From an uncultured Clostridia bacterium (GTDB lineage: Bacteria; Bacillota; Clostridia; Christensenellales; UBA1242): a stretch of 32,882 bases of DNA. The stretch lies in assembly GCA_944381255.1 (NCBI GenBank), contig CALWKL010000025.1:1-32882 (forward strand). Reading direction: 5' to 3'. Within the stretch, counting starts at the first letter, position 1, and every line of letters starts with the position of its first letter. The translations under genes were made by a program, and so were the position numbers. Positions 2,989-26,482 of the stretch are shown here, piece by piece. The notes beneath the pieces were generated by a model. That model had not been told where the DNA came from. It searched no databases and saw only the letters and a program-made list of their open reading frames with translations.

Positions 2989-3004
2989 AAAAGTGATTTA
3001 AATC

Positions 3005-3036
3005 AAAAACACCCTTATTAAAAAGAGTGTTTTTTA
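3005..3036. terminator. bidirectional intrinsic terminator between convergent genes
   Basis: Stem AACACCCTT/AAGAGTGTT (9 bp, one mismatch) with an A-run upstream and a T-run downstream. Confidence 0.55.
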
Positions 3037-3073
3037 TTAAAAATAATTTACAAACTAAATATTAGATTCAAAA

Positions 3074-3907
3074 CTACAGGCGAATATTTTCCCCTGTTTC
3101 TGCACTTTGATACATTACCCAATAACCTGCACCATCTGGCTCGGATAATTTGAGAGGCAACCATTGACAGTAATCTACAAGACTCTCTGGTGGCGCTGTA
3201 GCCCTAGAAGAAGCAGGAATTCCATAACAAAGATGAGTAACTACTTCGCCATCAAATAATTTGCCTAAAATATAATGCTGAGTATCATCTGGAGCATAAT
3301 TTACCTTTATCCACTCAGTATTAGCAACCAAATCTTCCAACTCTCGAAAATGTGGGAATTTAGCGAATAATTCATCGAGTTGAGGTTGTATAAGCGAATA
3401 AAAGTTGCCTGTAGGCTCAGGATACTCCTCCTCTACTTCATCTGTTTTCCTTTGACTCAAATTATCATCATTTTCTTCCTGTTGTATGGCAGGATTACTG
3501 ATAGAATCGTCCAATTCTCGTTCAATGATTTCATCTAATTCTTTATCAGATAATTCATCAAAGAGAGCAGAATAGTCAGGGCTAATAGTAGCACTGTGCG
3601 CCATGGCAAGTGGACTAACCACGCCATCTATATTAGTTGCCAAAAGCAAGGTTATATCATCATCATTTGTGACACCAGATATACGAAAGTCATAATTTTG
3701 TGGTGTGTCTATATCGGAAAACAGAAATTTTTTATCCCCTACTTTTACCACCATATCTATAGGTAAAAGTTCATCTCGTATATTGAATACTTTGATATTT
3801 CCAGACAAACTATCCCCGCCTGAAAATGTGGCAAGCCCACGGATAGGCTTGGAATTCATATTATTGTATTCAGGCAATTGATTGACTATCAAATTTTTTG
3901 TAATCAT
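3074..3907 (-). CDS. hypothetical protein (277 aa) with an acidic central linker and a conserved-looking C-terminal domain
   Basis: ORF with a GGAG RBS (rc: TAGGAGTAAATATG). The central stretch is D/E-rich (DELSDKELDEIIERELDD...EENDDNLSQRKTDEVEEEYPEP). The C-terminus reads HLCYGIPASSRATAPPESLVDYCQWLPL...GAGYWVMYQSAETGE. I cannot assign a family. Confidence 0.7.
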   Translation of the reverse strand: MITKNLIVNQLPEYNNMNSKPIRGLATFSGGDSLSGNIKVFNIRDELLPIDMVVKVGDKKFLFSDIDTPQNYDFRISGVTNDDDITLLLATNIDGVVSPLAMAHSATISPDYSALFDELSDKELDEIIERELDDSISNPAIQQEENDDNLSQRKTDEVEEEYPEPTGNFYSLIQPQLDELFAKFPHFRELEDLVANTEWIKVNYAPDDTQHYILGKLFDGEVVTHLCYGIPASSRATAPPESLVDYCQWLPLKLSEPDGAGYWVMYQSAETGENIRL

Positions 3908-4849: not shown

Positions 4850-5624
4850 TATTATCCTTCATTTTATCAAAAAATTTATAAGCATTCTGTGTAGTCGCTT
4901 CTGCCACTTGGCTAAGAGACAAGCCTTTTAATTCTGCTACCTTCTCTGCTACTAATTCGGTATACTCTGGGCGATTAATTTTACCACGGTATGGCTCAGG
5001 AGCGAGATATGGCGCATCAGTCTCTACCATTAGTCTATCCATAGGTATAGCCATCACAGCCTCTCTCAAATCAGCACGAGGTTTGAAAGTAATGAGTCCT
5101 GTTACCGAAATCATCAAATCGTGGTCGAGCACTCTAAGTGCAGTATCTTTGTCACCATCGAAGCAATGCACTACCCCACTTTTAAAGCGATGGCGATTGT
5201 CCTTTAGCCAGTCTAAGAAATCATCAAAAGCATCACGCACGTGAAAAATTACTGGCAAATTATACTCACTAGCAATATCAATTTGCTTATTGAGTACAGC
5301 GAATTGCTCTGCACGATTATCCATACCATAATGGTAGTCTAAGCCAATTTCTCCTATTGCTACGACCTTAGTATCTCCTGCATTTTTTCTCAAAAAAGCA
5401 TCACACATAGCATTATACTCTATGCAATTTTCTGGGTGAATACCTATCGCACAAAAAACTTTGGGTTGGCTACGCGCTAGTCCTAAAGCAGTGATACTAC
5501 TTTCTAGCGAAAAACTTGGACAAATTACCTTTTGCACAACCCCTGTCTCTAGATTTTGTAAAATTTCTGGTAAAATATCAGCCATTCTCTCTACATTGAT
5601 ATGTGAATGTGTATCTATTAACAT
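4842..5624 (-). CDS. tatD: TatD family metal-dependent hydrolase/DNase
   Basis: MLIDTHSHIN start with the HxH motif, plus IGEIGLDYH, VIFHVRDA, VHCF and ETDAPYL signatures. RBS AGGAGAG. Confidence 0.9.
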   Translation of the reverse strand: MLIDTHSHINVERMADILPEILQNLETGVVQKVICPSFSLESSITALGLARSQPKVFCAIGIHPENCIEYNAMCDAFLRKNAGDTKVVAIGEIGLDYHYGMDNRAEQFAVLNKQIDIASEYNLPVIFHVRDAFDDFLDWLKDNRHRFKSGVVHCFDGDKDTALRVLDHDLMISVTGLITFKPRADLREAVMAIPMDRLMVETDAPYLAPEPYRGKINRPEYTELVAEKVAELKGLSLSQVAEATTQNAYKFFDKMKDNNE

Positions 5625-5715
5625 AATTCTCTCCTAACTTAGGTTTATTTTATCAAGTTTTATCTAAATAGTAAAGTTTTTTCATAAAAAACTACACAAA
5701 TTCATATGGTATCAT

Positions 5716-6291
5716 ATGAAAAAAATTTGGTTTTTTATGGTTCTATCCAGCATAGTTACGCTTATTTTTGTCAACCCAGAAGATTGTATAAATGCAATGA
5801 TGAATGCTGGTAGTGATGCAGTAGCATTGACTATCAAATTATTAGGTATATATGCTGTATGGTTAGGCATCATAGCCTTAGTCGATGCCACTGGTCTATC
5901 CAATAAAATTGCAAATTTACTAGACCCTGTGATAGATTGGTTGTTCGGTCGCACAGATAGTGAAACAAAAAAATATCTAGCCTTGAATATGTCTGCCAAT
6001 CTCTTAGGGTTGGGCAACGCCTGTACCCCTACTGGACTAAAAGCCATGGAGGGCCTTGACAGGCAAAACAACTCGCTCACAGCTTCGACCGCTATGATAA
6101 TGCTAGTAGTAATCAATGCTACCAGTATCCAACTCATTCCTACCACAGTTATTGGACTAAGACAGCAATACGGTTCAACTAGCAGTAGTGATATAATTGT
6201 GCCCACCTTGATTGCCACAATCATAAGCACAGTCCTTGCAGTATTCCTAGTCAAATTATGCGCAAAAATCAAGGAGCGCCTAAAGAGATGA
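5716..6291 (+). CDS. spmA: spore maturation protein A (nucleoside-recognition/Gate domain)
   Basis: NLLGLGNACTPTGLKAME and INATSIQLIPTTVIGLR match the SpmA pattern I remember (GLGNAATPLGIKAME, NTSSITLIPTTVIAIR). A spmB-like gene follows. Confidence 0.85.
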   Translation: MKKIWFFMVLSSIVTLIFVNPEDCINAMMNAGSDAVALTIKLLGIYAVWLGIIALVDATGLSNKIANLLDPVIDWLFGRTDSETKKYLALNMSANLLGLGNACTPTGLKAMEGLDRQNNSLTASTAMIMLVVINATSIQLIPTTVIGLRQQYGSTSSSDIIVPTLIATIISTVLAVFLVKLCAKIKERLKR

Positions 6292-6800
6292 ATATCAGTG
6301 TATATATTACCCCTGTACTCCTTGTCTTGTTGCTACTATACTGCGCAAAAAAGAGAGTCAATGCGTATGGGACTTTTGCCAATGGCGCAAAGGACGCAAT
6401 CAAACTTTGCCTTGATGTATTGCCATTTTTAGTAACGATTTTTGTAGCGATACAACTATTCAAAATTAGTGGATTGACTAGCCTGCTAGCGAATTTTTTG
6501 AGTCCGATAATGAATACTATCCAAATACCTAGCGAACTTACTGAACTTATGCTTATACGCCCCTTTAGTGGTAGCGGCAGTCTTGCATTGCTAGAAGATA
6601 TTTTTTCTACCTATGGCGCAGATAGTTATATCGCAAGGTGCGCTAGTGTAATTATGGGCAGTAGTGAGACAATATTTTATGTAGCGACTATATATCCAAG
6701 CCAGACAAAAGCAAAAAGGCTAGTGTATGCAATACCTGTGGCACTAGTGTGCAACATTTTTTCTGCAATAATTGCTTGTATCGTATGTAGATTTTGCTAA
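6288..6800 (+). CDS. spmB: spore maturation protein B
   Basis: The ATG at 6288 overlaps the spmA stop (ATGA), and AAGGAG lies 11 nt upstream. It encodes a membrane protein with RPFSGSGSLALLEDI. The track start at 6258 lies inside spmA with no RBS. Confidence 0.85.
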   Translation: MNISVYITPVLLVLLLLYCAKKRVNAYGTFANGAKDAIKLCLDVLPFLVTIFVAIQLFKISGLTSLLANFLSPIMNTIQIPSELTELMLIRPFSGSGSLALLEDIFSTYGADSYIARCASVIMGSSETIFYVATIYPSQTKAKRLVYAIPVALVCNIFSAIIACIVCRFC

Positions 6801-6814
6801 GCAAAATATAATGG

Positions 6815-7462
6815 TTACTTTCTCCACTCTGCTAATTTAAAATCTTCGCCATGCCCAGGGTGTACCATAGTGCTACTAGGTAAATTTTCAAGTTTTTCTA
6901 AAGTATTTACGAGTTCTCTCCTGTCCCCTGTGGGTAGGTCGTACCTTCCAAAAGAATTACCTGCAAACATTACATCGCCCACAAATAAATTTTGGTCTTT
7001 ATATATACTAATTGAACAATTTGTGTGGCCTGGGGTATCTATTACCTCCCAAATTTCATCACACAGAATTATTTTGTTGTCTTGAGGAAATTCTGCTAAA
7101 TTTTTGGGAATGATAATTTCTAGTGGTTTGTCGTTTAACATACAAGAGTAATTAATGCTACTTGACTGCAAATTTTGATAACATTTTCTACTCAAAACTA
7201 TAGGAATATCGCTTTCAATAAAATCTTGAATTTTCTCGACATGGTCAAAATGACAATGAGTTACTATTACTTTGTCTAATATAAGTTCATTTCCCGTAGT
7301 CCTATCTTGATTAGGTAGTAAAAAATCGCCCAAGACTTCTCGTATTTGTACTAAACTATGACTAGGGTCAACGACACAAAACTTTCCATTCGATATAATA
7401 ATAAAAGTGTTACTTATAGGTCCTAAAGAGGTCTCTTTGCCCTCTATTTTTTTTATTTCCAT
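6815..7462 (-). CDS. MBL-fold metallo-hydrolase (glyoxalase II-like)
   Basis: HxHxDH motif (THCHFDHV), later TPGHT and PGHG histidines, about 215 aa. Confidence 0.85.
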   Translation of the reverse strand: MEIKKIEGKETSLGPISNTFIIISNGKFCVVDPSHSLVQIREVLGDFLLPNQDRTTGNELILDKVIVTHCHFDHVEKIQDFIESDIPIVLSRKCYQNLQSSSINYSCMLNDKPLEIIIPKNLAEFPQDNKIILCDEIWEVIDTPGHTNCSISIYKDQNLFVGDVMFAGNSFGRYDLPTGDRRELVNTLEKLENLPSSTMVHPGHGEDFKLAEWRK

Positions 7463-7581
7463 ATATTTACCTCAAAAAAATTTTATCAAAAATATATAAT
7501 TTATGCAATTGTTTTGATAGACTAAATTTCGCTTTTGGGGTATAATTAGATTTAGTACTTTACAATAAATAGGAGTGAAAA

Positions 7582-9690
7582 ATGAATAAAGATTTATTTA
7601 CCTTAATGCACCCAAATAGTGTAGCAATCATAGGAGCGTCTGCCAAACCTGGTAGCGTAGGTAACGAATTAATACTGCGTGCTACAGAAGCAAGATTTAC
7701 TGGTAGGCTGGTGGCTATCAATCCAAAAAACGATGAGATAAATGGCGTACCTTGTTATCCAAATATCGCTAGTGTACCTTTTAAAGTGGATACGGCTATA
7801 ATTGCTGTCCCTGCTGCTGGGGTTTTGCAAGTACTAGAGGAGTGCCATGCCTCTGGTTGTAATCATGCAGTCATTATCTCTAGTGGTTTTAAAGAAGTCG
7901 GCGATGCTGGTCGTGCACTAGAGCAACAAATAGCAGATTTTGCTAATATGAATGATATGACTGTAGTCGGTCCAAACTGCTTAGGTATCATAAACACTGC
8001 GACAGAATATTCACTAAACGCATGTTTTGCCCCATTACAACCTATGCGTGGTTCGGTAGGTTTTGCGACACAATCAGGAGCTCTCGCTAGTGGTATTATT
8101 AATGTATTGCCTAATTTACGCATCGGCTTATCCCAAATGATTTCACTTGGCAATCAATGTCAAATTAATAGCATTGATGTATTAAGATGCTGGGAAAATG
8201 ATGACTCAATAAAGGTAATATTGCTATACCTAGAATCAATTCCAAATGAAAAGGAATTTAGAGAAGTCGCTAGTAGAATATCACTCAAAAAGCCAATACT
8301 TGTCATCAAATCTGGTAGGTCTGAGCGAGGGGCAAGGGCTTCGGTATCGCACACAGGTAGCCTCGCTGGAGATGATACAACTGTATCAGGAATGTTGGCA
8401 TCTAGTGGCGTAATTCGCGAACTTGACCTTAGAGAATTATTTGACACTGCCCAAGTACTCAGTAAGTGTCCTCTCCCAAAAGGAGAAAATCTAGCTATTA
8501 TTACCAACGCAGGTGGCCCTGGAATTATGGCTACCGACACTGCAAGCGATTATTCAATCACTATAGCAAACCTTACTGACGATACAAAGCAAAAATTACG
8601 CAGTGTACTCTCTCCTCAAGCCAGTGTAGCAAACCCAGTAGATGTAGTAGCCAGTGCTACAGCAGAACAGTATTCTGCTAGTGCAAAGATACTATTAGAT
8701 GCCCCTGAAGTAGATATGCTGTTGGTAATTTATCTATATATCACAGGTAAAAATGATATACGCATTATGAAAGAACTAGAGGAATTGAAAAAATCTCACC
8801 CTACAAAGCCAATCGTAGCTATGCTACTCACTACCCCAAACTTCAATAATGAATTAGATGCAGAATTGCCTAACTGCTCTATCCCTACATTTAGTTACAT
8901 TGCAGATGCTATGCATGGTCTGTCTAGACTAATAGAGCGCAAACACTTTATCGAGGACAAACAGTCAGAGCGAGTATATAATCTAAACATTGACTCAAGC
9001 AAGACAAAAGCCATATTAGATTCTGCAAAAAGAGATGGTATTAAACAATTAACCACGCTTCAAAGTCTACAAATTTTTGCTAATTATAACTTACCTACAC
9101 CAAAATTTGGTAATGCTCAAAGTCTAAACGATGCCAAAAAAATTGCCAAGGAAATCGGCTACCCAGTAGTACTCAAAATGTCTAGCAAGACTGTAACACA
9201 CAAGTCAGATATTGGTGGCGTGGTTACTAATATAAAGACGGAAGAAGAACTCGCAGAACACTGGAATAGGCTCATGGATAGATTGCGCGAAGCTAATGTT
9301 ATCGATACGCTAGACGGAATAGTAGTTATGCAACAAATTAGAGGAGCCAATCGTGAACTTGTCGCTGGTATAGTAGAAAAAAATGGTACTCACCAAATGA
9401 TGTTTGGCCTAGGAGGAATATTTGTAGAAGCTCTACACGAAGTGGCTTTTCGCCCTTGCCCTCTTACCTATTTAGACGCAGTCAGCTTACTCAATAGTAC
9501 AAAAGCAAAAAATATAATCGGAGCACTAAGAGGTAATTTGGCAGCAGACCCTCAAGAGATTATCCTTACCCTACTACGACTTAGCCAATTAGTGAGTGAT
9601 TTCCCAGAAATCAAAGAAATTGATGCTAACCCTCTTATGATTAATGACAAAGGCGAACTTTTTGTCGTAGATGCTCGAATTGTGCTATAA
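7582..9690 (+). CDS. ADP-forming acetate/acyl-CoA ligase family protein (fused alpha/beta: CoA-binding + CoA-ligase + ATP-grasp)
   Basis: N-terminal CoA-binding SVAIIGAS...PGSVG, then GPNCLGI, SQSGAL-like TQSGALAS and SHTGSLAG, with a C-terminal ATP-grasp (GYPVVLK...HKSDIGGV). RBS AGGAGTG. There is no C-terminal GNAT domain. Confidence 0.85.
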   Translation: MNKDLFTLMHPNSVAIIGASAKPGSVGNELILRATEARFTGRLVAINPKNDEINGVPCYPNIASVPFKVDTAIIAVPAAGVLQVLEECHASGCNHAVIISSGFKEVGDAGRALEQQIADFANMNDMTVVGPNCLGIINTATEYSLNACFAPLQPMRGSVGFATQSGALASGIINVLPNLRIGLSQMISLGNQCQINSIDVLRCWENDDSIKVILLYLESIPNEKEFREVASRISLKKPILVIKSGRSERGARASVSHTGSLAGDDTTVSGMLASSGVIRELDLRELFDTAQVLSKCPLPKGENLAIITNAGGPGIMATDTASDYSITIANLTDDTKQKLRSVLSPQASVANPVDVVASATAEQYSASAKILLDAPEVDMLLVIYLYITGKNDIRIMKELEELKKSHPTKPIVAMLLTTPNFNNELDAELPNCSIPTFSYIADAMHGLSRLIERKHFIEDKQSERVYNLNIDSSKTKAILDSAKRDGIKQLTTLQSLQIFANYNLPTPKFGNAQSLNDAKKIAKEIGYPVVLKMSSKTVTHKSDIGGVVTNIKTEEELAEHWNRLMDRLREANVIDTLDGIVVMQQIRGANRELVAGIVEKNGTHQMMFGLGGIFVEALHEVAFRPCPLTYLDAVSLLNSTKAKNIIGALRGNLAADPQEIILTLLRLSQLVSDFPEIKEIDANPLMINDKGELFVVDARIVL

Positions 9691-13179: not shown

Positions 13180-14796
13180 CTACATTACATCTTTGTCAGT
13201 TAATCTTGTAAACAGTGCCTCAAATTTACCAAAATTCTTCCCTGTCTCCGCCTCAATGTAATTCCAAGTTGGCTTATTATTTAGTTTTAAATATTCTCTA
13301 ATTTTTTCTGCACTAAACGGCATAAATGGCTCAAATAAATTTGATAGATTGGCTATGATTTGTACACAAGTGTATATACAGTTATTGAATGCGGTCTTAT
13401 CCTCATTCTTATACAATACCCAAGGTTGCATAGTATCATAATATTTGTTAGCATCTTCTACAAGTTGCATGACATTACTCAATGCATCTCTAAAATTACA
13501 TGACAAAATATTCTTTTCTACACATTGATAGGTAGTCTCTATTTTCTTGCGTATATCATTATCCATTTCCCCAGCTGGCAAGAACCCGTCTAATCCTTTG
13601 TAATTTAAAGTACGATTTACGAAATTACCAAACTTATTTACTATTTCACCATTGTGCTGAGCGTGGTATTCTTCAAAAGTAAAATTTGAATCTCTTTTCT
13701 CTGGTCCATTAGCAATGCAGAAAAATCTCAAACTATCAGGATTGAATTTATCCAGCATATCTAGCATTGGCCAGCCATTGCCTTTACTTTTACTGATTTT
13801 TTCGCCATTGATATTGAGGAACTCCGAACTTACACAATGCTCAGGCATCAGGTATGGGTCTTTAGTCGCCATAAGTAATGCAGGGAAAATTATAGAGTGG
13901 AATACAATATTATCTTTTCCATGACACATATAAATTAGATTTTCTTGATTATCTTTTTTAAACCAATAATCTCTCCAATCTAGTCCATGCTGTTCACAGT
14001 ATGCCATAGTCGCAGTAACATACCCCCACACAGCCTCAATCCACACATAAATACGCTTATCCTCGAAGCCTTCAAAAGGTACTGGCACTCCCCAATTTAA
14101 ATCTCTGGTAACTGCTCTATCCTGTAGTCCTTCATCGAGAAATTTTGCAGTTTCATTGACAGTATTTTTGCGCCAATATTTAGCACATTTTTCAAAATGT
14201 TCTTTCAAAGGTTTGCTAAACTTCGACAAAGCAAAGTACAAGTTAGTATTGTCTCTAATTTCTGTCTGACTACCACAAATACGACATTTACCACGCAGTA
14301 AGTCTTGAGCCTGAAAAACATAATCACAGTTGCCACACTGGTCGCCTTTGCTGACTGCGCCACATTTTGGACATACCACTTCTACTTCACGGTCATATAC
14401 AAACTTACCGCACTTTGGACAAAAACTTGCAGGCTCTGTCTTAGAATAAATATATCCATTGGCATAAAGTTTTTTTATCATATCTTGCACTTTTTCTGCA
14501 TGATAGCTAGTAGCCGTCATTGTGTAATAATCATAACTCATACCAAGTCTACGGAATACCTCTACATACTGCTCGTGATATCTCTCTACAATTTCCCTAG
14601 GAGTTTTACCCTCACGAATAGCACGCTCTGTAGTAGGTGTACCATGGCAGTCGGTACCACTTACCATAAGGACATTATCACCCTTAGCACGATGAAATCG
14701 AGCCAACACATCACCAGGCATATATGCAATGATATGCCCTAGATGAATATCACTATTAGCATAAGTCCACGCAATACCTATCAAAACATTCTTCAT
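13180..14796 (-). CDS. metG: methionine--tRNA ligase
   Basis: HIGH-type SDIHLGHI, KMSKS-type KISKSKGN, and four CxxC zinc knuckles (CPKCG, CPKCG, CGNC, CRICG). Start chosen at MKNVLIG, with AGAGGTGA 4 nt upstream. The track start at 14823 lacks an RBS. Confidence 0.93.
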   Translation of the reverse strand: MKNVLIGIAWTYANSDIHLGHIIAYMPGDVLARFHRAKGDNVLMVSGTDCHGTPTTERAIREGKTPREIVERYHEQYVEVFRRLGMSYDYYTMTATSYHAEKVQDMIKKLYANGYIYSKTEPASFCPKCGKFVYDREVEVVCPKCGAVSKGDQCGNCDYVFQAQDLLRGKCRICGSQTEIRDNTNLYFALSKFSKPLKEHFEKCAKYWRKNTVNETAKFLDEGLQDRAVTRDLNWGVPVPFEGFEDKRIYVWIEAVWGYVTATMAYCEQHGLDWRDYWFKKDNQENLIYMCHGKDNIVFHSIIFPALLMATKDPYLMPEHCVSSEFLNINGEKISKSKGNGWPMLDMLDKFNPDSLRFFCIANGPEKRDSNFTFEEYHAQHNGEIVNKFGNFVNRTLNYKGLDGFLPAGEMDNDIRKKIETTYQCVEKNILSCNFRDALSNVMQLVEDANKYYDTMQPWVLYKNEDKTAFNNCIYTCVQIIANLSNLFEPFMPFSAEKIREYLKLNNKPTWNYIEAETGKNFGKFEALFTRLTDKDVM

Positions 14797-14869
14797 AAAA
14801 TCACCTCTAAATGAATATACCATATTCCCATAATTTTTGCAATGTTTTGATTTAATTTTATATTATAAG

Positions 14870-16648
14870 TTAGACATTTTGATACAAAGTTTCAAAAAGT
14901 CGAAACCACATTTTGCTGGCTGATTTTATTCGCTTATCTTTGTAATTATTTAGCAAAAATTGACTAAATAGGCTGGCTAAATGCTTCCTAAAATCACTAG
15001 GTATACTCTTAATTTTACTTAATGACTCTACCTGCTCTAAAAATGGAATATTACTATTAAAGGCAATATTTTTACCAAAAACCTTTATTAAATAATCTCT
15101 AGCACTATCTACCAAGAGTTCAGTAGGCACTAAATCTTCCATACTACTAGCACGGAATAAATCTTTTAGCACAATAATTTTATCCTTGTTTTTGCCATAA
15201 TTTGCCTTTAGGTTATCTGCTACTTTATAAGTCTCTAGGCTCTCCTCTACCAGCACTAATGGCAAGACATTTTGTCTTTGAAGTACTTGTGCTGTACTCA
15301 GAGTAGCATCTGGACTTGATAATATTGATAAAATTGGTTTTTTGAGCATATCACCGAAAGTTTGTCCACTCTCAATCAGGTAATTTTTGAACGAATTGAG
15401 ATAAATCTCCACAGCGTCATTCATCACTATGATAGGAGTGCTCTCACGCAAAACCGATGCGCTAACCTGCATATTTATAGCTGTACTTACTGGCACAATA
15501 GCGGCTTCGCTTGAGCGAGTCTTCTCTCTAAATGACATATCACTACTTACCAAACTATGCCCCAAGTTGTCTTTGTACACTACCCTTGTTCTATTTAGGT
15601 GGTCGACAGGCAACATAAAACTACTATGTGTAGAATAAATTATTTGGTTTGTCTTTGCCAATTCATCAAAGAAGTGTACCAAATCTTGCTGTGCTAATCC
15701 GTGCAAAGTAGCACCACTTTCGTCCAAAAGCATAACGGTATTTGAAAAAAACAGTTGGCTCTCAAGAGAAAATACCAAGAAGAAGGACAAAAACCACTGT
15801 ATACCTACACTTCTATCATCTAAAGGAGCACGTATGCCATTCTTGTCTGTTACAAAAATAGTAAGATTACCTGCATCAAATGCAAATTCAAAGCGATATT
15901 CACCTTGATGCCACCACTGATTGAACTCCTTGGTTAATTTTTCACTAGCGACAGAAAAAAGCTTTTGATAACGCGCATTAGTTTCAGTCAATTCTTTTAG
16001 TTTTGCTGAGGTCAACTTCATTTGATTTTGAGAAGCACCACTCAACAAATCTGCATCACAAGCCAACATTTCTGGTGTAATACCTATGTACAAAAGCAAC
16101 AATTTTATTGTGCGTTGCTTTGATTTACTAATCGTATTTATTCCACTTTTGTTAAATTTAGCTAGCATTTGCGGTAAATAAATATTGCTATCTAGATTAC
16201 CATAATTACTGTAGTACACGAATCCTGGCATAATTTTAATGACAAATTCATCAAGTTTTTCCTTGATAGCCGAATCTACATTTATAGGATATTCTACCAA
16301 ATATTTACCGCTTAAATATCTGCTAACTCGCACGTTTTCAAAAGTAACATTGCCACCAAACTTTTTCTTTATCAATTCTCTATCATATGGGCGAAGTTTA
16401 AATTCTGCAGTGATGAAAATGGGCAGGTTTTCCCCGTCCATAATCTCATCAAAGCGATCTATTGGCACATCATTTTTTAATATTTTATTGTCCCCTCTAA
16501 AAGCAGGGTTTAGCTTCCACAAGGCACGCAAAAGATTACTCTTCCCAGCCTCATTTACCCCAGCAATAGCAGTTACATTATCACAAGTAACCCAACCACT
16601 ATCTACGAATGACCTAAAATTCTGGACTCGAAATCTCGTTAATTTCAT
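14870..16648 (-). CDS. RecF/SMC-like ABC ATPase of the OLD / AAA_15-AAA_21 type, with a divergent Toprim-like C-terminal region
   Basis: MKLTRFRVQNFRSF...IAGVNEAGKSNLL (Walker A), RSVGIQWFLSF (signature-like), VMLLDESG (Walker B/D-loop) and IIYSTHS (H-loop). For the C-terminal blocks IIVMNDAVEIYL / ILSILSS / LVLVEES / SMEDLVP see findings. The ATG overlaps the upstream stop (ATGA). Confidence 0.8.
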   Translation of the reverse strand: MKLTRFRVQNFRSFVDSGWVTCDNVTAIAGVNEAGKSNLLRALWKLNPAFRGDNKILKNDVPIDRFDEIMDGENLPIFITAEFKLRPYDRELIKKKFGGNVTFENVRVSRYLSGKYLVEYPINVDSAIKEKLDEFVIKIMPGFVYYSNYGNLDSNIYLPQMLAKFNKSGINTISKSKQRTIKLLLLYIGITPEMLACDADLLSGASQNQMKLTSAKLKELTETNARYQKLFSVASEKLTKEFNQWWHQGEYRFEFAFDAGNLTIFVTDKNGIRAPLDDRSVGIQWFLSFFLVFSLESQLFFSNTVMLLDESGATLHGLAQQDLVHFFDELAKTNQIIYSTHSSFMLPVDHLNRTRVVYKDNLGHSLVSSDMSFREKTRSSEAAIVPVSTAINMQVSASVLRESTPIIVMNDAVEIYLNSFKNYLIESGQTFGDMLKKPILSILSSPDATLSTAQVLQRQNVLPLVLVEESLETYKVADNLKANYGKNKDKIIVLKDLFRASSMEDLVPTELLVDSARDYLIKVFGKNIAFNSNIPFLEQVESLSKIKSIPSDFRKHLASLFSQFLLNNYKDKRIKSASKMWFRLFETLYQNV

Positions 16649-17760
16649 TCTTTTTTCTCCGATAAATTGTTATTTTGTCTTCTCATTTTGTCAAGTAACT
16701 CTCTACGAATAGTCGAAGCACTAGACCTATCGTTTATCACATTAGTGTTTGAAAATCTGGCGCTTAATTTGGCTTGCAGAGGGGTATTTGTATCTATATT
16801 CGGTGTATAAGTAAATATATAATTATCCTTTTTGTCTTGAGCAATTTTCTTGTGAGTAATTACCTTGCGTTCCTTGGTAGGAATATCGCTCAAGTTTGAC
16901 TTCTCCACCTTTTTTACCACTGTTTTCTTTGGCGCAGAAGCCTTTTTGTTTTGTTCTGCCGTCAAAAGAATGGGCGCAATCTCACGCTCAAAGCCTAAAG
17001 GCTTGTCAATAGAATCTTGTATATTCTTGTCAAGTTTATCATCACTACTTTGAGTCGATGACTGTATAATAGTTCTGGCATCAGATACTTCATCTTCCTG
17101 TATAAAAGTGCTTATAGGAGAGTCCTCTGATTTAATTTCTACAGTATCACTCTGTTCAATACTATTAGAATTCTTGCTACGATGTGATGATTTTCGTCTT
17201 ACTTTGCGAGGCTTAGCGACTACAGGCGCATCATCTGACAGGACATCAATCCAATTATCAAGATTCATCTGCCCTTGAGCCACTTGATTGTATTTGTCTA
17301 CATAATCAGCATATGTTGGCCTTGTAGGAGATTTCCTAGATGAAACTCTTGAAGCTTTGCGCTTCTTAGGCTCTTCGGCTACGCCTACAAAACTTGGCAA
17401 AGTCAATTGATAAAAGGGATCAGAAAACACGGGACCATAGATGACTATGCTCTCTTTATTGGGTGCTTGAATTAGTGGTACATCCTTGGTATTATCTTCG
17501 TCTTCTTGGACTGCAGAAAAAGAAGCCTCGACTTCGTTACTCTTGTTTTCTTCCTTATGTGGGAAAAAGTCCAAAGCAATAAGTGTGGCAGTCATAATGA
17601 TTATGACGGCAGGTAAAATAAAGAAGCAAATCAATACCACCGTGCTTACCTCACCCATACCCAACGATATCAAACCACCACTAATAAGCAATAGCAAACA
17701 AACACTCACTATTAGGATATAAGAAATTATCCTCTGTTTTGTTACGACTTTGTTTGTCAT
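16645..17760 (-). CDS. membrane protein: two N-terminal TM helices plus a ~300-aa low-complexity, basic-patch-rich tail
   Basis: Hydrophobic segments IISYILIVSVCLLLLISGGLISLG and VVLICFFILPAVIIIMTATLIALDFF. The remainder is S/K/E/D/T-rich with KKRKASRVSSRKSPTRP and KPRKVRRKSSHRSK patches. G-rich RBS, own promoter. Confidence 0.75.
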   Translation of the reverse strand: MTNKVVTKQRIISYILIVSVCLLLLISGGLISLGMGEVSTVVLICFFILPAVIIIMTATLIALDFFPHKEENKSNEVEASFSAVQEDEDNTKDVPLIQAPNKESIVIYGPVFSDPFYQLTLPSFVGVAEEPKKRKASRVSSRKSPTRPTYADYVDKYNQVAQGQMNLDNWIDVLSDDAPVVAKPRKVRRKSSHRSKNSNSIEQSDTVEIKSEDSPISTFIQEDEVSDARTIIQSSTQSSDDKLDKNIQDSIDKPLGFEREIAPILLTAEQNKKASAPKKTVVKKVEKSNLSDIPTKERKVITHKKIAQDKKDNYIFTYTPNIDTNTPLQAKLSARFSNTNVINDRSSASTIRRELLDKMRRQNNNLSEKKE

Positions 17761-17801
17761 GGAATCGCCCCCAAACTCTAGTCTAACCCCTATTTTTAGT
17801 T

Positions 17802-17830
17802 ATTTTATCACAACTAGCAAGATTTGGCAA
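17802..17830 (-). promoter_or_regulatory. sigma-A-type extended -10 promoter of the TM-protein/ATPase cassette
   Basis: Minus strand reads TTGCCA, 17 nt, (TGa)TAAAAT, about 40 nt upstream of the ATG at 17760. Confidence 0.5.
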
Positions 17831-17843
17831 TCAATTTGGGCAA

Positions 17844-17870
17844 TAAAAAAGCACCCAAATTATGAGTGCA
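17844..17870 (-). terminator. intrinsic terminator after the 233-aa gene
   Basis: GCACCCA/TGAGTGC stem (one mismatch) starting 8 nt after the stop. A T-run follows on the minus strand. Confidence 0.5.
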
Positions 17871-17877
17871 TTTTTAA

Positions 17878-18579
17878 TTATACAGAGAATTTACCTTCGT
17901 CGTAAAGAGCCTGTAGCACATTGTATAATCCTACATAATTACCATATGCTGTATAATAAAATCTTGTTGTTGTACTGCTAGTTGCGGCAGTATCTCTACG
18001 CAAATAGAAGTAAGAGTATTTTGCTTGGTCTCCTTGACTCACTGCAAAAGTAGCAGCTACATAGTAAACTGGGTCTGTTACTTGAGTACCATTACTTAAC
18101 TCATAAGTAAACTGCTGACCATTTTTATCGGTCATAAGTTGCTTCTCATCCCAATAGAAAGTTACAGAGTAAGTAGTAGCATTAGCCAAACTTCCATATG
18201 ATTTTGAAGATTGTGTATCATATACTGCAGTCATACCCTTGCCAGCATAACCATTGAATATTGTCTCGATAACTACTGGGCTACTAGAATTATTATAAGC
18301 GTCCCAAACTCTATAAAAGTCTACACGAGTACTTTCTGTATCTTCATACAATGTAAGGGTCTGCGATTCACTCTTGATAACTACACGATCAGGAGTTGAA
18401 TTGAACTTGGCACCAGTATAAGTAGGTACTACTGCCAAAATGATAGTAGTGATTATTAGCGCAGCAATAATTGAATAAGAAACAATCATAATAATACGAT
18501 TAGTCAATGTCATACGCTCAAAAAATGATTTATGAGCAGTACTTGTAATAGCGCTATTAGTAATTTCTTGATTTTCCAT
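17878..18579 (-). CDS. single-pass membrane-anchored protein with a beta-rich extracytoplasmic domain (hypothetical)
   Basis: N-terminal anchor IIMIVSYSIIAALIITTIILAVV, then a Y/T/S-rich domain. RBS AAAGGGAAC. I cannot assign a family. Confidence 0.7.
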   Translation of the reverse strand: MENQEITNSAITSTAHKSFFERMTLTNRIIMIVSYSIIAALIITTIILAVVPTYTGAKFNSTPDRVVIKSESQTLTLYEDTESTRVDFYRVWDAYNNSSSPVVIETIFNGYAGKGMTAVYDTQSSKSYGSLANATTYSVTFYWDEKQLMTDKNGQQFTYELSNGTQVTDPVYYVAATFAVSQGDQAKYSYFYLRRDTAATSSTTTRFYYTAYGNYVGLYNVLQALYDEGKFSV

Positions 18580-18662: not shown

Positions 18663-20936
18663 TTATTTTTCCTCTTTTTTTGTTTTTGCCTTACTTTTTG
18701 CAATTTTCGCATCTGCATTATTTTGTTGTTCTGTTGCATCGGTTTTATCTTTTACTTCTTCTTGTGAAGTTGAATCCTGAGTTGCCTTTGCATCAGTGGC
18801 ATTATTTTGCTCATCTTTGTTAATTTTAGGTTGTGTATCAGTATTGGCTTCATTTACGATATCAGTCTTTTGCGCTGGACTAGATTGTGCTCCAGTGTAA
18901 GCCTTAAAGGCGGTACGCTCCAAGTCATTCATAACATTAACAGAATTAGCGATACGCTCCTCTTCTAATTTCTTCTTACGAGCGAGAGCCTCAGCATCAC
19001 GTTGTTTACGCTCCTCAGCACGTTTGTCCATAGCCTCTATAACCTCAGTAGAACTCTTGCCACTCATCAACTCATCTACCTCTTCAGAGTAGATAGTTTG
19101 CTTTTCAATCAATGTCTTAGCCATTTCGTCTAGGATAGAACGATTTTGCTTCAACACTTCTATTGCGCGTTGCTCACAATCTACAATAATTGACTTAATC
19201 TCTTCATCAATCAAACGAGCAGTGTCATCACTTATATTTGAGCGTTGTTGGAAATCTCTGCCTAAGAATACTTCCCCACCGTCAGCATAACATACAGGGC
19301 CGAGCTTTTCACTCATACCGTATTTAGTAACCATATCACGAGCAATGTTGGTAGCAACTTCTATATCATTGCTAGGGCCAGTCGCCAATTGACCAAATAC
19401 CAATCTCTCAGCAGCACGACCACCCATCAAACCAGTGATATGCTTAATCATCTCATCACGGGTAAGTTGGTAAGTATCTCCACCATGTTTATGGTCCACT
19501 TGAGAGGTCATACCACCAGAAACACCACGAGGAATGATAGTTACTTCCTGAACCTCTTTGTCATCACCATGCAAGGTCTTAATCACTACAGCATGCCCAG
19601 ACTCGTGATAAGCAGTAATCTTCTTCTCCTCATCACTTTGCTTACGATTTTTCTTTTGAGGACCATATTCTACCTTCAATGAACCTTCAAAAATGTCGCT
19701 TTCGGTAATAATATTTCTTCCATCACGGACAGCCAAAATTGCTGCCTCATTAAGTATATTCTCTAGGTCAGCACCAGTGGTAGAAGGCAATCTTCTCGCA
19801 ATTCCCTCCCAGTCAATATCATCTGCGAAAGGTTTATTCTTAGCATACAGCTTCAAAATCTTGATTCTGCCGTCTAGGTCTGGCACATTGACTACGATTC
19901 TTCGGTCAAAACGCCCAGCACGCAAGAGTGCAGGGTCAAGTACATCAGGTCTATTGGTTGCAGCGATTACCACAATACCAGCACTTGACTCAAAACCGTC
20001 CATCTGCACTAGCAATTGGTTAAGAGTCTGCTCACGCTCATCGTTAGTATTACCTAATCCAGCACCACGCTGACGACCCACAGCATCAATCTCATCTATA
20101 AATATTAGACAAGGGCTACTACGCTTAGCAGTCTCGAACAAATCACGCACACGAGCAGCACCGACACCGACATACATTTCTACAAAATCACTACCAGTGA
20201 TACTAAAGAAAGGCACACCAGCCTCGCCCGCAATCGCCTTAGCTAGCAAAGTCTTACCAGTACCTGGAGGGCCTACAAGCATTACACCCTTAGGTATACG
20301 AGCACCCATTTCGGTAAACTTACGAGGATTTTTCAAGAATTCTACAATTTCTTGCATCTCTTGCTTCTCTTCATCGCAACCAGCCACATCACTAAAGCGC
20401 ACCTTTAAGCCACTATCCATTCTAGCTTTGCTACGACCAAATTCTCCATTTCTGCCTGACATCTTGGTCATCGCTTTGTACACGAAGTATCCTAAAACTA
20501 TAAGCATTAATATATAGATGTATGGTAGTATCCGGGATAAGATAGGCTCACTTACAGGCTCAGATTTGATAACTATATCATTAGAAACTGCCTGTACTCT
20601 CTCTTGAATTTCTTGTATTTGGAAAGAGTAGGCTACTGTGATATAAAAATCATATTCTTTAGGGAAATTCTCCAATTTCTTGGCTGTCTCTTCCTCGGTC
20701 TCACCTTTCAAAACACCGTAAACAGTGGAACCATAAAAATACACGCCGGCCACCTTTTGCTCTTCTACAGGGCTCTCGGCAGTACCTAGATACTCATAAA
20801 AAGTATTGATACTTATTTCCTTCTTACTGTCTCCAGTATTGATAAAAGTCAATAGCAGTACAATGACCAAAAAAGCAATTAATAATATTGGGAAAATAGA
20901 TATACGCCTAGGTCCATTGTTGCTTGGTCTATCCAT
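18663..20936 (-). CDS. ftsH: ATP-dependent zinc metalloprotease FtsH
   Basis: [13 protein letters not shown] (Walker A), LIFIDEIDA (Walker B), [19 protein letters not shown] (SRH), HESGHA zinc site, and two N-terminal TM segments. Start set at MDRPS (8 nt after AAGGAG). The track start at 20942 is only 2 nt from the RBS. Confidence 0.93.
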
Positions 20937-20968
20937 TATCATTACTCCTTAAAATTATATATTTATTA

Positions 20969-24987: not shown

Positions 24988-25677
24988 TTATTTTACAATA
25001 TTATTAGTTTGATAATTTTCATTCAAGAAATCATCAAAACTTTCCTTTAGCACATATTGAAGATTGTCAGTAGTAGATAATTTGTTTATTGACACTTCGT
25101 ACGCCGTACGAGTTTCCGAAGTATTCTCATCAATTCTCTTTTGGTACTGACGGCTCTGGATACGGCCAGTAAGATAAAGTTTTTCCCCTACAGAGAGGTC
25201 GCTAACAAATCGTGCATTCCTACCCCAAGCAATACAAGGAAGATAATCTGACTTATTATATGCTCGATTGATAGCCAATAGCATATCACAGATTTCTCTT
25301 TTGAAAGGGGTCATTCTATATACTGGCGCTTTACATATATACCCTTCTAATTCTATTATGTTAGAGTTTTGATTAGCCACTGGCTCTACAATTTCTCTCA
25401 CAAAGACAGTAAGCATCAATTTGCTCTTGCCATCTACAAATTTATTATAACTACGGAATTGCCCGCGCACCGCAAGAGTCGCCCCAATAGAAAGATTGTT
25501 TTCGCCAATCAAGCGCTCAGAAACAGTGATAGGTATCATATCAAATTGCTCTGATAACCTATCCACCTCCAAATTAATGTCATAAAAGCCCTCGCCGTAT
25601 ACCTCGTGGCTAAACACTGGCGAACTAGCCACCTTACCACATAAATACACACGATTGTTATCAAAATCAAAACTCAT
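24988..25677 (-). CDS. single-stranded-DNA-binding-like protein with two tandem OB folds
   Basis: Both halves show the SSB pattern. First: NRVYLCGKV...FYDINLEV...LAVRGQFRSYN. Second: NIIELEGYICKAP...LLAINRAYNKSDYLPCIAWGRNARFV...LYLTGRIQSRQY...AYEVSI. Start at MSFDFD (25677) with a GGAG RBS. The track extension to 25779 overlaps the upstream gene. Confidence 0.75.
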   Translation of the reverse strand: MSFDFDNNRVYLCGKVASSPVFSHEVYGEGFYDINLEVDRLSEQFDMIPITVSERLIGENNLSIGATLAVRGQFRSYNKFVDGKSKLMLTVFVREIVEPVANQNSNIIELEGYICKAPVYRMTPFKREICDMLLAINRAYNKSDYLPCIAWGRNARFVSDLSVGEKLYLTGRIQSRQYQKRIDENTSETRTAYEVSINKLSTTDNLQYVLKESFDDFLNENYQTNNIVK

Positions 25678-25702
25678 AATAATCTCCTTGGTTTTTTGTT
25701 TT

Positions 25703-26482
25703 TTAAGAATTTGTATTTTTGTTAAGTTTTTGGACACCTGCCCTATCGATAATATAATTATCTTTGTATACCAAATCACCTATACAAGTAATCGTATATC
25801 CTTGTTTTTTCAAACGATCTAGCACAATAGGTAATGCGTCTAAAATATGGTCGGAATTGTTGTGACATAGGATAATTGAGCCATTCTTTACTCGTGAAAG
25901 TATCCTATTTGAGATTTCGCTACCACTTATACCTTTCCAATCTAGGCTATCTACGTCCCATTGGATAGTCTGCAAGCCCATTGCACTAGCCGTATCTATG
26001 ACAGTATTGTTGTACGAACCAAATGGAGCACGAAATAATTCTACATCGACATCTACAACTGATTTTATTTTCTGCACAGACTGCTCTAACTCTAGTCGAA
26101 TTTGCTCTGCACTGAGTTTGACTAAATCTGGGTGGGTATTGCTATGTGTACCTATTTCGTAGCCATGCTCTTGTATAAGCTTTACTTCATCTGGATATTT
26201 ATCTACCCAAAATCCTACCAAAAAGAAAGTAGCACCGACATCATATTCATCTAACAATTCTACAATTTTGGCTGTTTTATCAGCACCCCAAGCAGCATCA
26301 AAACTAATCGCTACCTGTTTTTTGTCAGTCTCTACATTGTAGACAGGAATTTTACGCAGATTATCCCCAAAGAACACAGCCGACATTGCGTTCTCTCCCA
26401 AAGGCATAGATAGTACAGCACACAAGACAATACTAGCCAAAGCTAGCCACAAAACTGACCGCTTTATGATAAGAAATTTCAT
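25703..26482 (-). CDS. pdaB: polysaccharide deacetylase (NodB) family protein, PdaB-like sporulation type
   Basis: N-terminal TM/signal segment, then ISFDAAWG, GATFFLVG, GYEIGTHSNTHPD and LFRAPFG NodB motifs, about 259 aa. RBS GAGGAAG. The PdaB versus PdaA assignment is tentative. Confidence 0.75.
   Translation of the reverse strand: MKFLIIKRSVLWLALASIVLCAVLSMPLGENAMSAVFFGDNLRKIPVYNVETDKKQVAISFDAAWGADKTAKIVELLDEYDVGATFFLVGFWVDKYPDEVKLIQEHGYEIGTHSNTHPDLVKLSAEQIRLELEQSVQKIKSVVDVDVELFRAPFGSYNNTVIDTASAMGLQTIQWDVDSLDWKGISGSEISNRILSRVKNGSIILCHNNSDHILDALPIVLDRLKKQGYTITCIGDLVYKDNYIIDRAGVQKLNKNTNS

Follow-up and report, generated by a model that had tools for sequence, protein, structure and literature searches.

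The stretch of DNA considered here, a window of 32,882 bp (GC 35.8%) that makes up the whole of contig CALWKL010000025.1 of an uncultured Clostridia bacterium, contains two adjoining genes, for a 371-residue membrane protein (the partner) and for a 592-residue ABC ATPase of the OLD family; all features of the pair lie on the minus strand. The ATPase gene is resident on the chromosome of an uncultured lineage of gut Clostridia, is inherited vertically and is not an insertion. The head of the protein is constrained as strongly as methionyl-tRNA synthetase (MetRS), and the C-terminal domain appears to be a Toprim nuclease domain that has lost its active site. The gene is probably a domesticated, nuclease-dead OLD ATPase, membrane-tethered in this organism, for which a lineage-specific housekeeping or surveillance role is likelier than membership of a mobile abortive-infection module. 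Several major anti-phage systems (OLD, Gabija, PARIS, Septu and some retrons) have an OLD-type ABC ATPase as their sensor module, and the stand-alone role of the OLD-type ATPase head is still debated.

That the 592-residue protein is an OLD-type ABC ATPase, as a preliminary description made from the sequence alone had proposed, is borne out by Pfam AAA_15, which spans residues 1-345 (E 1e-20; Pfam detects the head only), by invariant motifs and by structural matches. The five ATPase motifs named in that description are all present: FRVQNFRSF at residues 6-14, GVNEAGKS at 30-37, SVGIQWFLSF at 280-289, VMLLDESG at 305-312 and YSTHS at 338-342. Invariance was scored on a 42-sequence alignment of ATPase homologues, and the residues concerned are listed in Table 1; the Walker B and D-loop align with those of Thermus scotoductus (Ts) OLD, H316 falling on its D-loop histidine (PMC7049728). 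The full AlphaFold2 (AF2) model, with a predicted local distance difference test score (pLDDT) of 86, retrieves Ts OLD (6p74) and GajA as top Foldseek matches, aligned over 620-680 columns, and 8eea, 8sux, 9n69, 8u7i and 8sm3 are matched at probability 1.0 through the ABC head fold. The best PADLOC models, AriA (PDLC02979, E 2e-22), AbiLi (second, E 1e-16) and Old, all cover the head only; the AriA match aligns protein residues 1-346 with 373 model positions, i.e. a generic ATPase head.

The same description took the protein to be an ATPase lacking a nuclease half, which is not the case, since the head is followed by a Toprim-derived C-terminal domain whose metal ligands are lost. In the AF2 model the domain core has the order beta-alpha-beta-alpha-beta-alpha-beta over residues 404-493. 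Comparison by hhalign of the domain of the clade with that of intact relatives gives a probability of 100% and E 7.6e-42 over 207 columns, and on this ground the dead domain is homologous to the live Toprim domain. In P2 OLD the metal-A ligands E398, D453 and D455 and the metal-B ligands E402, D541 and E543 are each needed in vivo (PMC7049728), and the motifs of the intact relatives match this ligand pattern. The motif table covers about 95 homologues, from which per-column counts were made on 77 non-redundant relatives (30-37% identity) and 17 non-redundant members of the ftsH-linked clade to which the window protein belongs. All 77 relatives carry (I/V)VEGxSDQ, (L/V)D[S/G/A/D]DxxG and ExEDxxP. 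E409, present in 77/77 relatives, is found in 0/17 clade members, where M, L, T, V or I stands instead, and G410 in 1/17; D468 and D470, each 77/77 in the relatives, fall to 6/17 and 4/17. In the third motif E502 is gone (0/17, always T or S), E504 is kept in 16/17 and D505 and P508 in 17/17. The window protein has M409, E468-E469-S470 and S502 at the ligand positions, and K421, P463, E504, D505, P508 and Q539 remain conserved in the dead domain. Judged by these residues, the protein is an OLD-family member with a live ATPase and a predicted dead nuclease, and the inactivation of the nuclease appears to be a single event at the base of the clade.

Rates of change differ sharply between the two parts of the protein. 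Synonymous divergence (dS) is saturated for most pairs, and comparisons were therefore made on nonsynonymous divergence (dN), plus one pair with finite dS. Between the window and locus L015 dN is 0.125 for the head, against 0.122 for MetRS and 0.169 for FtsH, and rises to 0.446 in the C-terminal domain and 0.72 in the partner; in the single pair with a finite but near-saturated dS, the dN/dS ratio omega comes to 0.014 (head), 0.16 (C-terminal domain) and 0.21 (partner). The C-terminal domain is 49% identical to that of L015 versus 84% for the head, and 25-28% versus 60-64% to the outer clade; it thus changes at some three to four times the rate of the head, with its length kept and under purifying selection. 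Orthologue length is constant (587-596 residues) and the reading frame is intact.

The pair had been described as the clearest accessory insertion in the window. This has to be abandoned, because the same block recurs in relatives, no empty site was seen, the composition is native and the ATPase co-diverges with FtsH and MetRS. The ATPase homologues form a smooth full-length series of ~590 residues from 100% down to 46% identity, and in those at 70%, 57% and 54% identity the order is ftsH, a homologue of the 233-residue protein p233, a membrane protein, the ATPase, sometimes an extra gene, and metG. More than 20 loci at 47-100% ATPase identity have the ATPase in an ftsH-p233-...-metG block wherever the sequence suffices; the ftsH/p233/metG block is common to L001-L006, L108, L109, L015, L017, L019, L021, L022, L053, L054 and L105-L107. 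In the ATPase-anchored metagenome scan, loci of at least 47% identity with enough flank have ftsH, p233 and/or metG, the exception being L018 (rlmN upstream); L016 and L020 are too short for the BLAST neighbour check, a p233 fragment being nonetheless visible in L020. Among ~70 loci at 30-37% identity none has ftsH, p233 or metG as neighbours, save two weak, opposite-strand AAA+ matches. Independently of the ATPase, GTDB species genomes were scanned with p233 as anchor, which returned seven loci (L008-L014); in the six whose downstream DNA is long enough, the ATPase and after it metG were found without exception. Two more p233-anchored look-ups gave a complete block (L108) and a locus that stops inside the partner gene (L109), and no empty site, i.e. 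a block without the ATPase, was found in 7/7 p233-anchored loci with enough sequence.

Pairwise ATPase distances track MetRS distances (r 0.83) and FtsH distances (r 0.84), with a Mantel p of about 2e-4. In GC content the pair is like the window; the value for the ATPase gene is 0.355 against 0.358 for the window, and its codon-usage distance is the lowest among all window genes. FtsH identity between the window and the outer clade is only 49-55%, and the association of the ATPase with the block is therefore old; judged from this FtsH identity, domestication would date to roughly family-to-order depth. The preliminary description had itself named, as something that would refute its reading, a core gene pair conserved at this locus with a known housekeeping role: the conservation is found, the known role is not.

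The flanks of the block vary among lineages. L018 and L019 have rlmN upstream (5097-6302 and 6746-7795, respectively) and no ftsH within 6.5-8 kb of upstream DNA, and elsewhere the ATPase adjoins mnmE-mnmG-parA-parB (L006 9979-13607; L105 8206-11633); these origin-proximal, tRNA/rRNA-related neighbours are probably plain synteny. The interval between the ATPase and metG (or mnmE), empty in the window, holds differing lineage-specific genes: products of 452 residues, 260+269, 209+186 and 224-226 residues, and a helix-turn-helix-pentapeptide protein (L001 8872-10230; L017 9995-11599; L107 7781-9226; L020 2339-3019; L021 2807-3481; L006 8950-9789). No conserved gene 3' of the ATPase emerged from these intervals as a missing partner, only the L020, L021 and L107 proteins (~210-226 residues, 27-37% identity) being interrelated. 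In one lineage (L003 4846-5589, minus strand, and L008) an opposite-strand DUF5131 gene stands between the p233 homologue and the partner, a small local insertion in a block that is otherwise conserved.

The intact relatives are distributed differently. They stand alone, in contexts that vary; PADLOC 'Old' is their best model and takes in the Toprim part, and P0103, the sole intact relative scanned against PHROGs, matches the phage protein family PHROG 4747 over its full length whereas the window protein matches it in the ATPase part only. Relatives with intact motifs occur on nine IMG/VR viral contigs; a tenth viral-contig locus, L104 (42% in the best segment), has no clean reading frame and was not scored. 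Full-length matches were found on plasmids from several phyla (Deinococcus, Paracoccus and Hymenobacter). No member of the dead-Toprim clade was found on viral contigs or plasmids in the IMG/VR and plasmid scans.

Both open reading frames (ORFs) of the pair are real genes, the ATPase having hundreds of homologues and the partner nine representatives (50% clustering, 1.84 billion proteins, full HMMER scan). The two ORFs, their ATGA overlap and the GGAG 8 nt before the ATG are as first reported, the partner TGA (16647..16645) sharing bases with the ATPase ATG (16648..16646). This exact overlap is found again in one other lineage only (L009/L108), with gaps of 3-22 nt in the rest. In the inner clade, which includes the window, partner and ATPase are probably co-transcribed and translationally coupled. 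The pair had been credited with its own extended -10 promoter after the hairpin terminator of the preceding gene; both sites are present, and the promoter is a consensus match only, because promoter-like sites are not enriched over shuffled sequence (37 in the window, 31 expected).

The partner was described as a membrane-anchored, disordered and basic protein. Two transmembrane (TM) segments and a low-complexity tail are indeed found; overall basicity is not, the 305-residue tail having 51 K/R and 47 D/E for a net charge of +4, i.e. a mixed-charge polyampholyte with basic patches. The only part common to all partners is a motif of ~65 residues, K.I.HKKP..DKRDDYVY..DTN.PIK..L..RF...S.ELL.KMRR, and a hidden Markov model (HMM) of it finds no genes but those directly upstream of the inner-clade ATPases (E 1e-18 to 1e-32). 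Some public gene calls begin the partner at Met56 (316 residues, with the upstream part 17596..17760 cut), which drops TM1; other gene calls and an alignment with L003 and L015 from residue 1 support the 371-residue form. A word-indexed homologue search with the partner returned only the partner itself, and nothing matched it in Pfam, NCBIfam, PADLOC (E<=0.1) or PHROGs.

A membrane-protein gene lies immediately upstream of the ATPase in 9/9 inner-clade lineages, overlapping it by 4 nt or separated from it by 3-22 nt, so that the reported 2-TM protein with a long low-complexity tail directly upstream holds well beyond the window. In six of these lineages a TM segment is followed by an extracytoplasmic beta-rich domain of ~130 residues, a second TM segment and a long charged tail; the partners in the window, L003, L015 and also L109 have no such beta domain, their two TM segments lying next to each other ahead of the tail. 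A signal-peptidase-like nature of the beta domain was considered and dropped, Pfam and a PDB profile search giving it no support. In the outer clade a TM-beta domain-TM protein without tail and motif stands upstream in two lineages (L017/L053 and L106), and the window partner has no globular domain in common with this version; the other seven of nine lineages (L006, L018, L019, L020, L021, L105/L054 and L107) have no partner by the ATPase. A more distant case is seen on a high-GC metagenome contig, L047, where an ATPase relative of 30% identity (1149-2927) has a degenerate Toprim (VAEVSD / LPSTP / ELEQ), a degenerate H-loop too (STPNP) and LLFDECG as Walker B; 72 nt downstream lies a 234-residue TM-beta domain-TM protein (3000-3704) that matches the HMM of the partner N-terminal part at E 4e-7, the same pairing in opposite gene order. 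Because a related membrane protein also accompanies the ATPase in two outer-clade lineages and in L047, the pairing is not accidental, and the link between ATPase and membrane protein is old and recurrent but dispensable.

A mechanism may be sketched on this basis. The ancestor of the 592-residue protein would be an OLD-family nuclease of the single-gene, Class 1-like type, of which the ATPase catalytic residues were kept while the metal-A Glu, most of the DxD and one metal-B Glu were lost, in a domain that can apparently still fold. The protein would no longer cut nucleic acid and might act as an ATP-driven sensor, clamp or scaffold, like the ABC heads of OLD, AriA and PtuA, with the nuclease output gone. 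The positive-inside rule places the tail and motif of the partner in the cytoplasm, and since the ATPase is on that same side the motif is an obvious candidate and likely docking site that would tether the ATPase to the membrane, the tail providing a flexible polyampholyte linker of ~230 residues that ends in the motif. The core function is presumably independent of the partner, because the dead-nuclease ATPase persists without it in most outer-clade lineages.

Several points weigh against this reading. A Foldseek search of PDB with a domain-only AF2 model (pLDDT 89) retrieved no Toprim structure at a significant E-value, GajA coming at rank 6 with probability 0.41, and the PDB profile search with the ATPase alignment stopped short of the Toprim part; the term 'Toprim-derived' rests on the sequence homology to intact relatives and on the full-length Foldseek matches to OLD and GajA. 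With the residual acids E504, D505, D413 (11/17) and, in the window protein, E468/E469, non-canonical catalysis keeps a slight probability. The docking of the partner motif on the ATPase is itself a conjecture. The test for absence of the ATPase is small (seven p233-anchored loci, all metagenome-assembled genomes), and ATPase-anchored loci are biased towards presence. Finally, the housekeeping role is putative, and vertical inheritance alone is compatible with an immune function.

A more specific proposal, offered tentatively, is an ancient domestication that produced a core ATP switch with a cellular, non-antiviral job, membrane-tethered in the inner clade and probably ancestrally so. Such a job could be the coupling of nucleic-acid or nucleoid state to the envelope, or non-cleaving surveillance of tRNA, the latter suggested by the tRNA-targeting of OLD-type Toprim domains and by the neighbours of the gene, metG, mnmEG or rlmN. 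The original proposal was of another kind, namely an active two-gene abortive-infection or defence module in which the ATPase senses and the membrane protein is the effector (e.g. by membrane damage), the dead Toprim meaning that the effector role has moved to the partner. Ancestry in the OLD defence family agrees with it, as do the tight coupling of the two genes, the very fast evolution and changing architecture of the partner, as is often seen in arms-race genes, the pairing in the other gene order in L047, and the variable lineage-specific genes gathered in the ATPase-metG spacer. It is nevertheless unlikely in view of the fixed position within a housekeeping block (an empty site being absent from 7/7 loci that were anchored independently), the co-divergence with FtsH and MetRS of an ATPase whose head is constrained like MetRS, the lack of any PADLOC or PHROG match to the partner, the lack of nearby defence genes in the window, and the fact that the clade was never found on viral contigs or plasmids. 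Sensing by the ATPase with output by a membrane effector cannot in any case be the general mode, since 7/9 outer-clade lineages keep the dead-nuclease ATPase without such a partner, and the outer-clade partners that do exist are without tail and motif.

The location of the gene has suggested further roles. In nearly all loci no more than a few kb part the ATPase from ftsH and p233, the two lineage-specific neighbours both code for membrane proteins, spoIVA adjoins ftsH in L107, and the extracytoplasmic beta domain of most partners could sense envelope state; these observations would fit a membrane-recruited ATP switch that works with the 371-residue protein and p233 in a process linked to the envelope, FtsH or sporulation, for instance the quality control of membrane proteins or the coupling of nucleoid and membrane. 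This is given rather little weight, because inherited synteny alone may explain the adjacency (L018 and L019 being without ftsH in the upstream DNA covered), in the window a terminator-like hairpin stands between p233 and the pair, p233 is nearly without a cytoplasmic part in the outer clade, and we know of no OLD-type ATPase that acts with FtsH. The dead Toprim might instead still bind tRNA, the protein then serving tRNA or translation homeostasis, e.g. by shielding or sensing tRNA. That would account for its lasting place beside tRNA-related genes (metG in most loci, mnmE-mnmG in L006 and L105, rlmN in L018 and L019), and would accord with the conservation of K421, Q539 and a basic residue at 554 in the dead domain and with the report that P2 OLD is a tRNase (bioRxiv 10.64898/2026.07.10.737580); the related systems PARIS and Septu/retron-Eco7 are likewise reported to target tRNA. 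However, these neighbours are ordinary origin-proximal housekeeping genes that may lie there without significance, no part of the protein evolves faster than the C-terminal domain (25-28% identity to the outer clade), and RNA binding is itself conjectural, so that this role is very improbable. A decaying relic of an old defence gene with no current function might be expected from the loss of the nuclease active site and the fast-evolving C-terminal domain, but the intact frame, the constant length of 587-596 residues in all orthologues, the invariant ATPase catalytic residues, the head dN equal to that of MetRS and omega values of about 0.01-0.16 leave it close to refuted.

The features of the pair and its immediate neighbours are collected in Table 1. 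In the window the gene order is gyrB, gyrA, polysaccharide deacetylase, ssb, tRNA, comEC, holA, ftsH, p233, partner, ATPase and metG, followed beyond metG by a phosphodiesterase, an ADP-forming acyl-CoA ligase, tatD, ksgA and murG. The genes surrounding the pair are all housekeeping, and family scans of the window proteins found no defence genes near it. The Rfam scan of the window returned one tRNA only, and thus no T-box or other RNA element near the pair.

Table 1. Coordinates of the gene pair, its domains, motifs and signals, and of the adjoining genes in the 32,882 bp window
Feature	Position	Strand	Description
Partner ORF	16645..17760	-	371 residues: two TM segments, polyampholyte tail, conserved C-terminal motif
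TM1	17662..17724	-	~residues 13-33; Kyte-Doolittle 19-residue windows >1.6
TM2	17572..17646	-	~residues 39-63 (hydrophobic peak ~38-63); Kyte-Doolittle windows up to 2.9
Partner C-terminal motif	16675..16872	-	residues 297-362; alignment of 16 partners
Junction	16645..16660	-	GGAG 16660..16657, 8-nt spacer, ATGA stop/start overlap 16648..16645; read off the sequence
ATPase ORF	14870..16648	-	592-residue OLD-family protein: ABC ATPase head and Toprim-derived domain predicted to be without active site
ABC ATPase head	15524..16648	-	residues 1-375, helical insertion ~158-245; AAA_15, AF2 pLDDT 86
Walker A GVNEAGKS (K36)	16538..16561	-	invariant in 42 aligned homologues and all loci
Walker B VMLLDESG (D309, E310) and D-loop His316	15701..15736	-	all three residues invariant
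H-loop YSTHS (H341)	15623..15637	-	T340, H341, S342 invariant
Toprim-derived C-terminal domain	14873..15523	-	residues 376-592; beta-alpha-beta core 404-493, then helices
Degenerate Toprim motif 1	15407..15433	-	IIVMNDAVE versus (I/V)VEGxSDQ in relatives
Degenerate DxD motif	15239..15259	-	LVLVEES versus (L/V)DSDxxG in relatives
Third acidic motif, partly retained	15125..15145	-	SMEDLVP versus ExEDxxP in relatives
Promoter-like site	17802..17830	-	TTGCCA-17-(TG)TAAAAT; consensus match only
Terminator-like hairpin and T-run	17851..17869	-	after the 233-residue gene; consensus scan
p233	17878..18579	-	233 residues, N-terminal TM segment; homologues directly after ftsH in every clade locus
ftsH	18663..20942	-	TIGR01241, E 1e-219; upstream anchor of conserved block
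metG	13180..14823	-	short-form MetRS, NF001100/TIGR00398; downstream anchor; likely true start 14796

The start of metG is most likely the ATG at 14796 and not at 14823, AGAGGTG preceding it, with a product of ~538 residues. The ATPase-metG spacer (14796..14869, ~73 nt) has no T-box (Rfam) and only a weak promoter-like TTGCAA-17-TATATT, and for these reasons metG may be read through from the pair. The p233 homologues directly after ftsH have ~200-235 residues and 23-57% identity, with one N-terminal TM segment and an extracytoplasmic domain (L001 5223-5891, L003 3824-4522, L005 4936-5631, L006 3817-4422, L017 6522-7178), and in L020, L021 and L107 p233 itself is the gene immediately upstream of the ATPase; p233 has no match in Pfam, NCBIfam, PADLOC or PHROGs. 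Farther away, the ssb ORF (24988..25779, minus strand, 263 residues, GTG start) has an SSB domain only at residues 141-234 and overlaps the end of the polysaccharide-deacetylase ORF (25703..26482, minus strand) by 77 nt, and the real start of ssb probably lies inside the listed ORF.

In the literature no description was found of a core Toprim-dead OLD clade or of an OLD-type ATPase combined with a membrane protein, one key ABC ATPase classification not being covered. The clade amounts to a natural experiment, in which the nuclease output appears to be gone and the head has been kept at housekeeping-level constraint over a long time; it splits sensing or scaffolding from cutting, with the ATPase sometimes linked to a membrane protein and sometimes alone. 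It also carries the warning that profile-based defence finders (PADLOC AriA, AbiLi and Old) can flag core, vertically inherited genes. Should a cellular role be found, the exaptation of an immune ATPase would be documented, to our knowledge the first case of an OLD-family member exapted into core cell biology.

Compared with the known systems, the pair is not Gabija, PARIS, Septu, retron or AbiL, because the partner genes of those systems are absent; the preliminary description had already remarked on the absence of GajB, PtuB and AriB, and window ORFs, Pfam and PADLOC agree. PARIS AriA, the best PADLOC score, is likewise an OLD-type ABC ATPase that serves as sensor or scaffold and does no cutting itself; however, no DUF4435/Toprim AriB adjoins the window gene, the window protein bears its own apparently dead Toprim whereas AriA is ATPase-only, and the solved PARIS chains give no sequence match to the window ATPase at E<=1. 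Septu/retron PtuA (with the HNH protein PtuB) and Gabija GajA (with GajB) have the ABC head fold in common with the window protein, and no HNH, UvrD-like helicase or reverse-transcriptase gene was found near the pair among the window ORFs and in family scans. GajA, unlike the window protein, keeps an active Toprim and has GajB beside it, and the best GajA PADLOC matches cover only short stretches of the window ATPase. AbiL resembles the pair as a two-gene system with the ATPase as one gene, AbiLi being the second-best PADLOC match, but the window partner is a membrane protein with no AbiLii match in PADLOC, and the locus is core and not mobile. The closest likeness is to Class 1 OLD (P2 Old; Ts OLD, PDB 6P74; Vibrio cholerae), which is, like the window protein, one polypeptide of ~520-600 residues with an ABC ATPase and helical insertion, a D-loop His, an H-loop His and then a C-terminal Toprim-type domain, 6p74 being the best PDB match by both structure and sequence. 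The head of P2 OLD recognises aberrant DNA structures (preprint 10.64898/2026.07.10.737580), and cleavage and in vivo activity of P2 and Ts OLD require the Toprim metal ligands (PMC7049728). Of the Class 1 OLD features the window protein thus has the ATPase residues and the Toprim homology and is without the Toprim metal ligands (the metal-A Glu, DxD and one metal-B Glu) and the stand-alone, mobile distribution, its gene being instead vertically inherited, fixed in a housekeeping block and, in the inner clade, coupled to a membrane protein.

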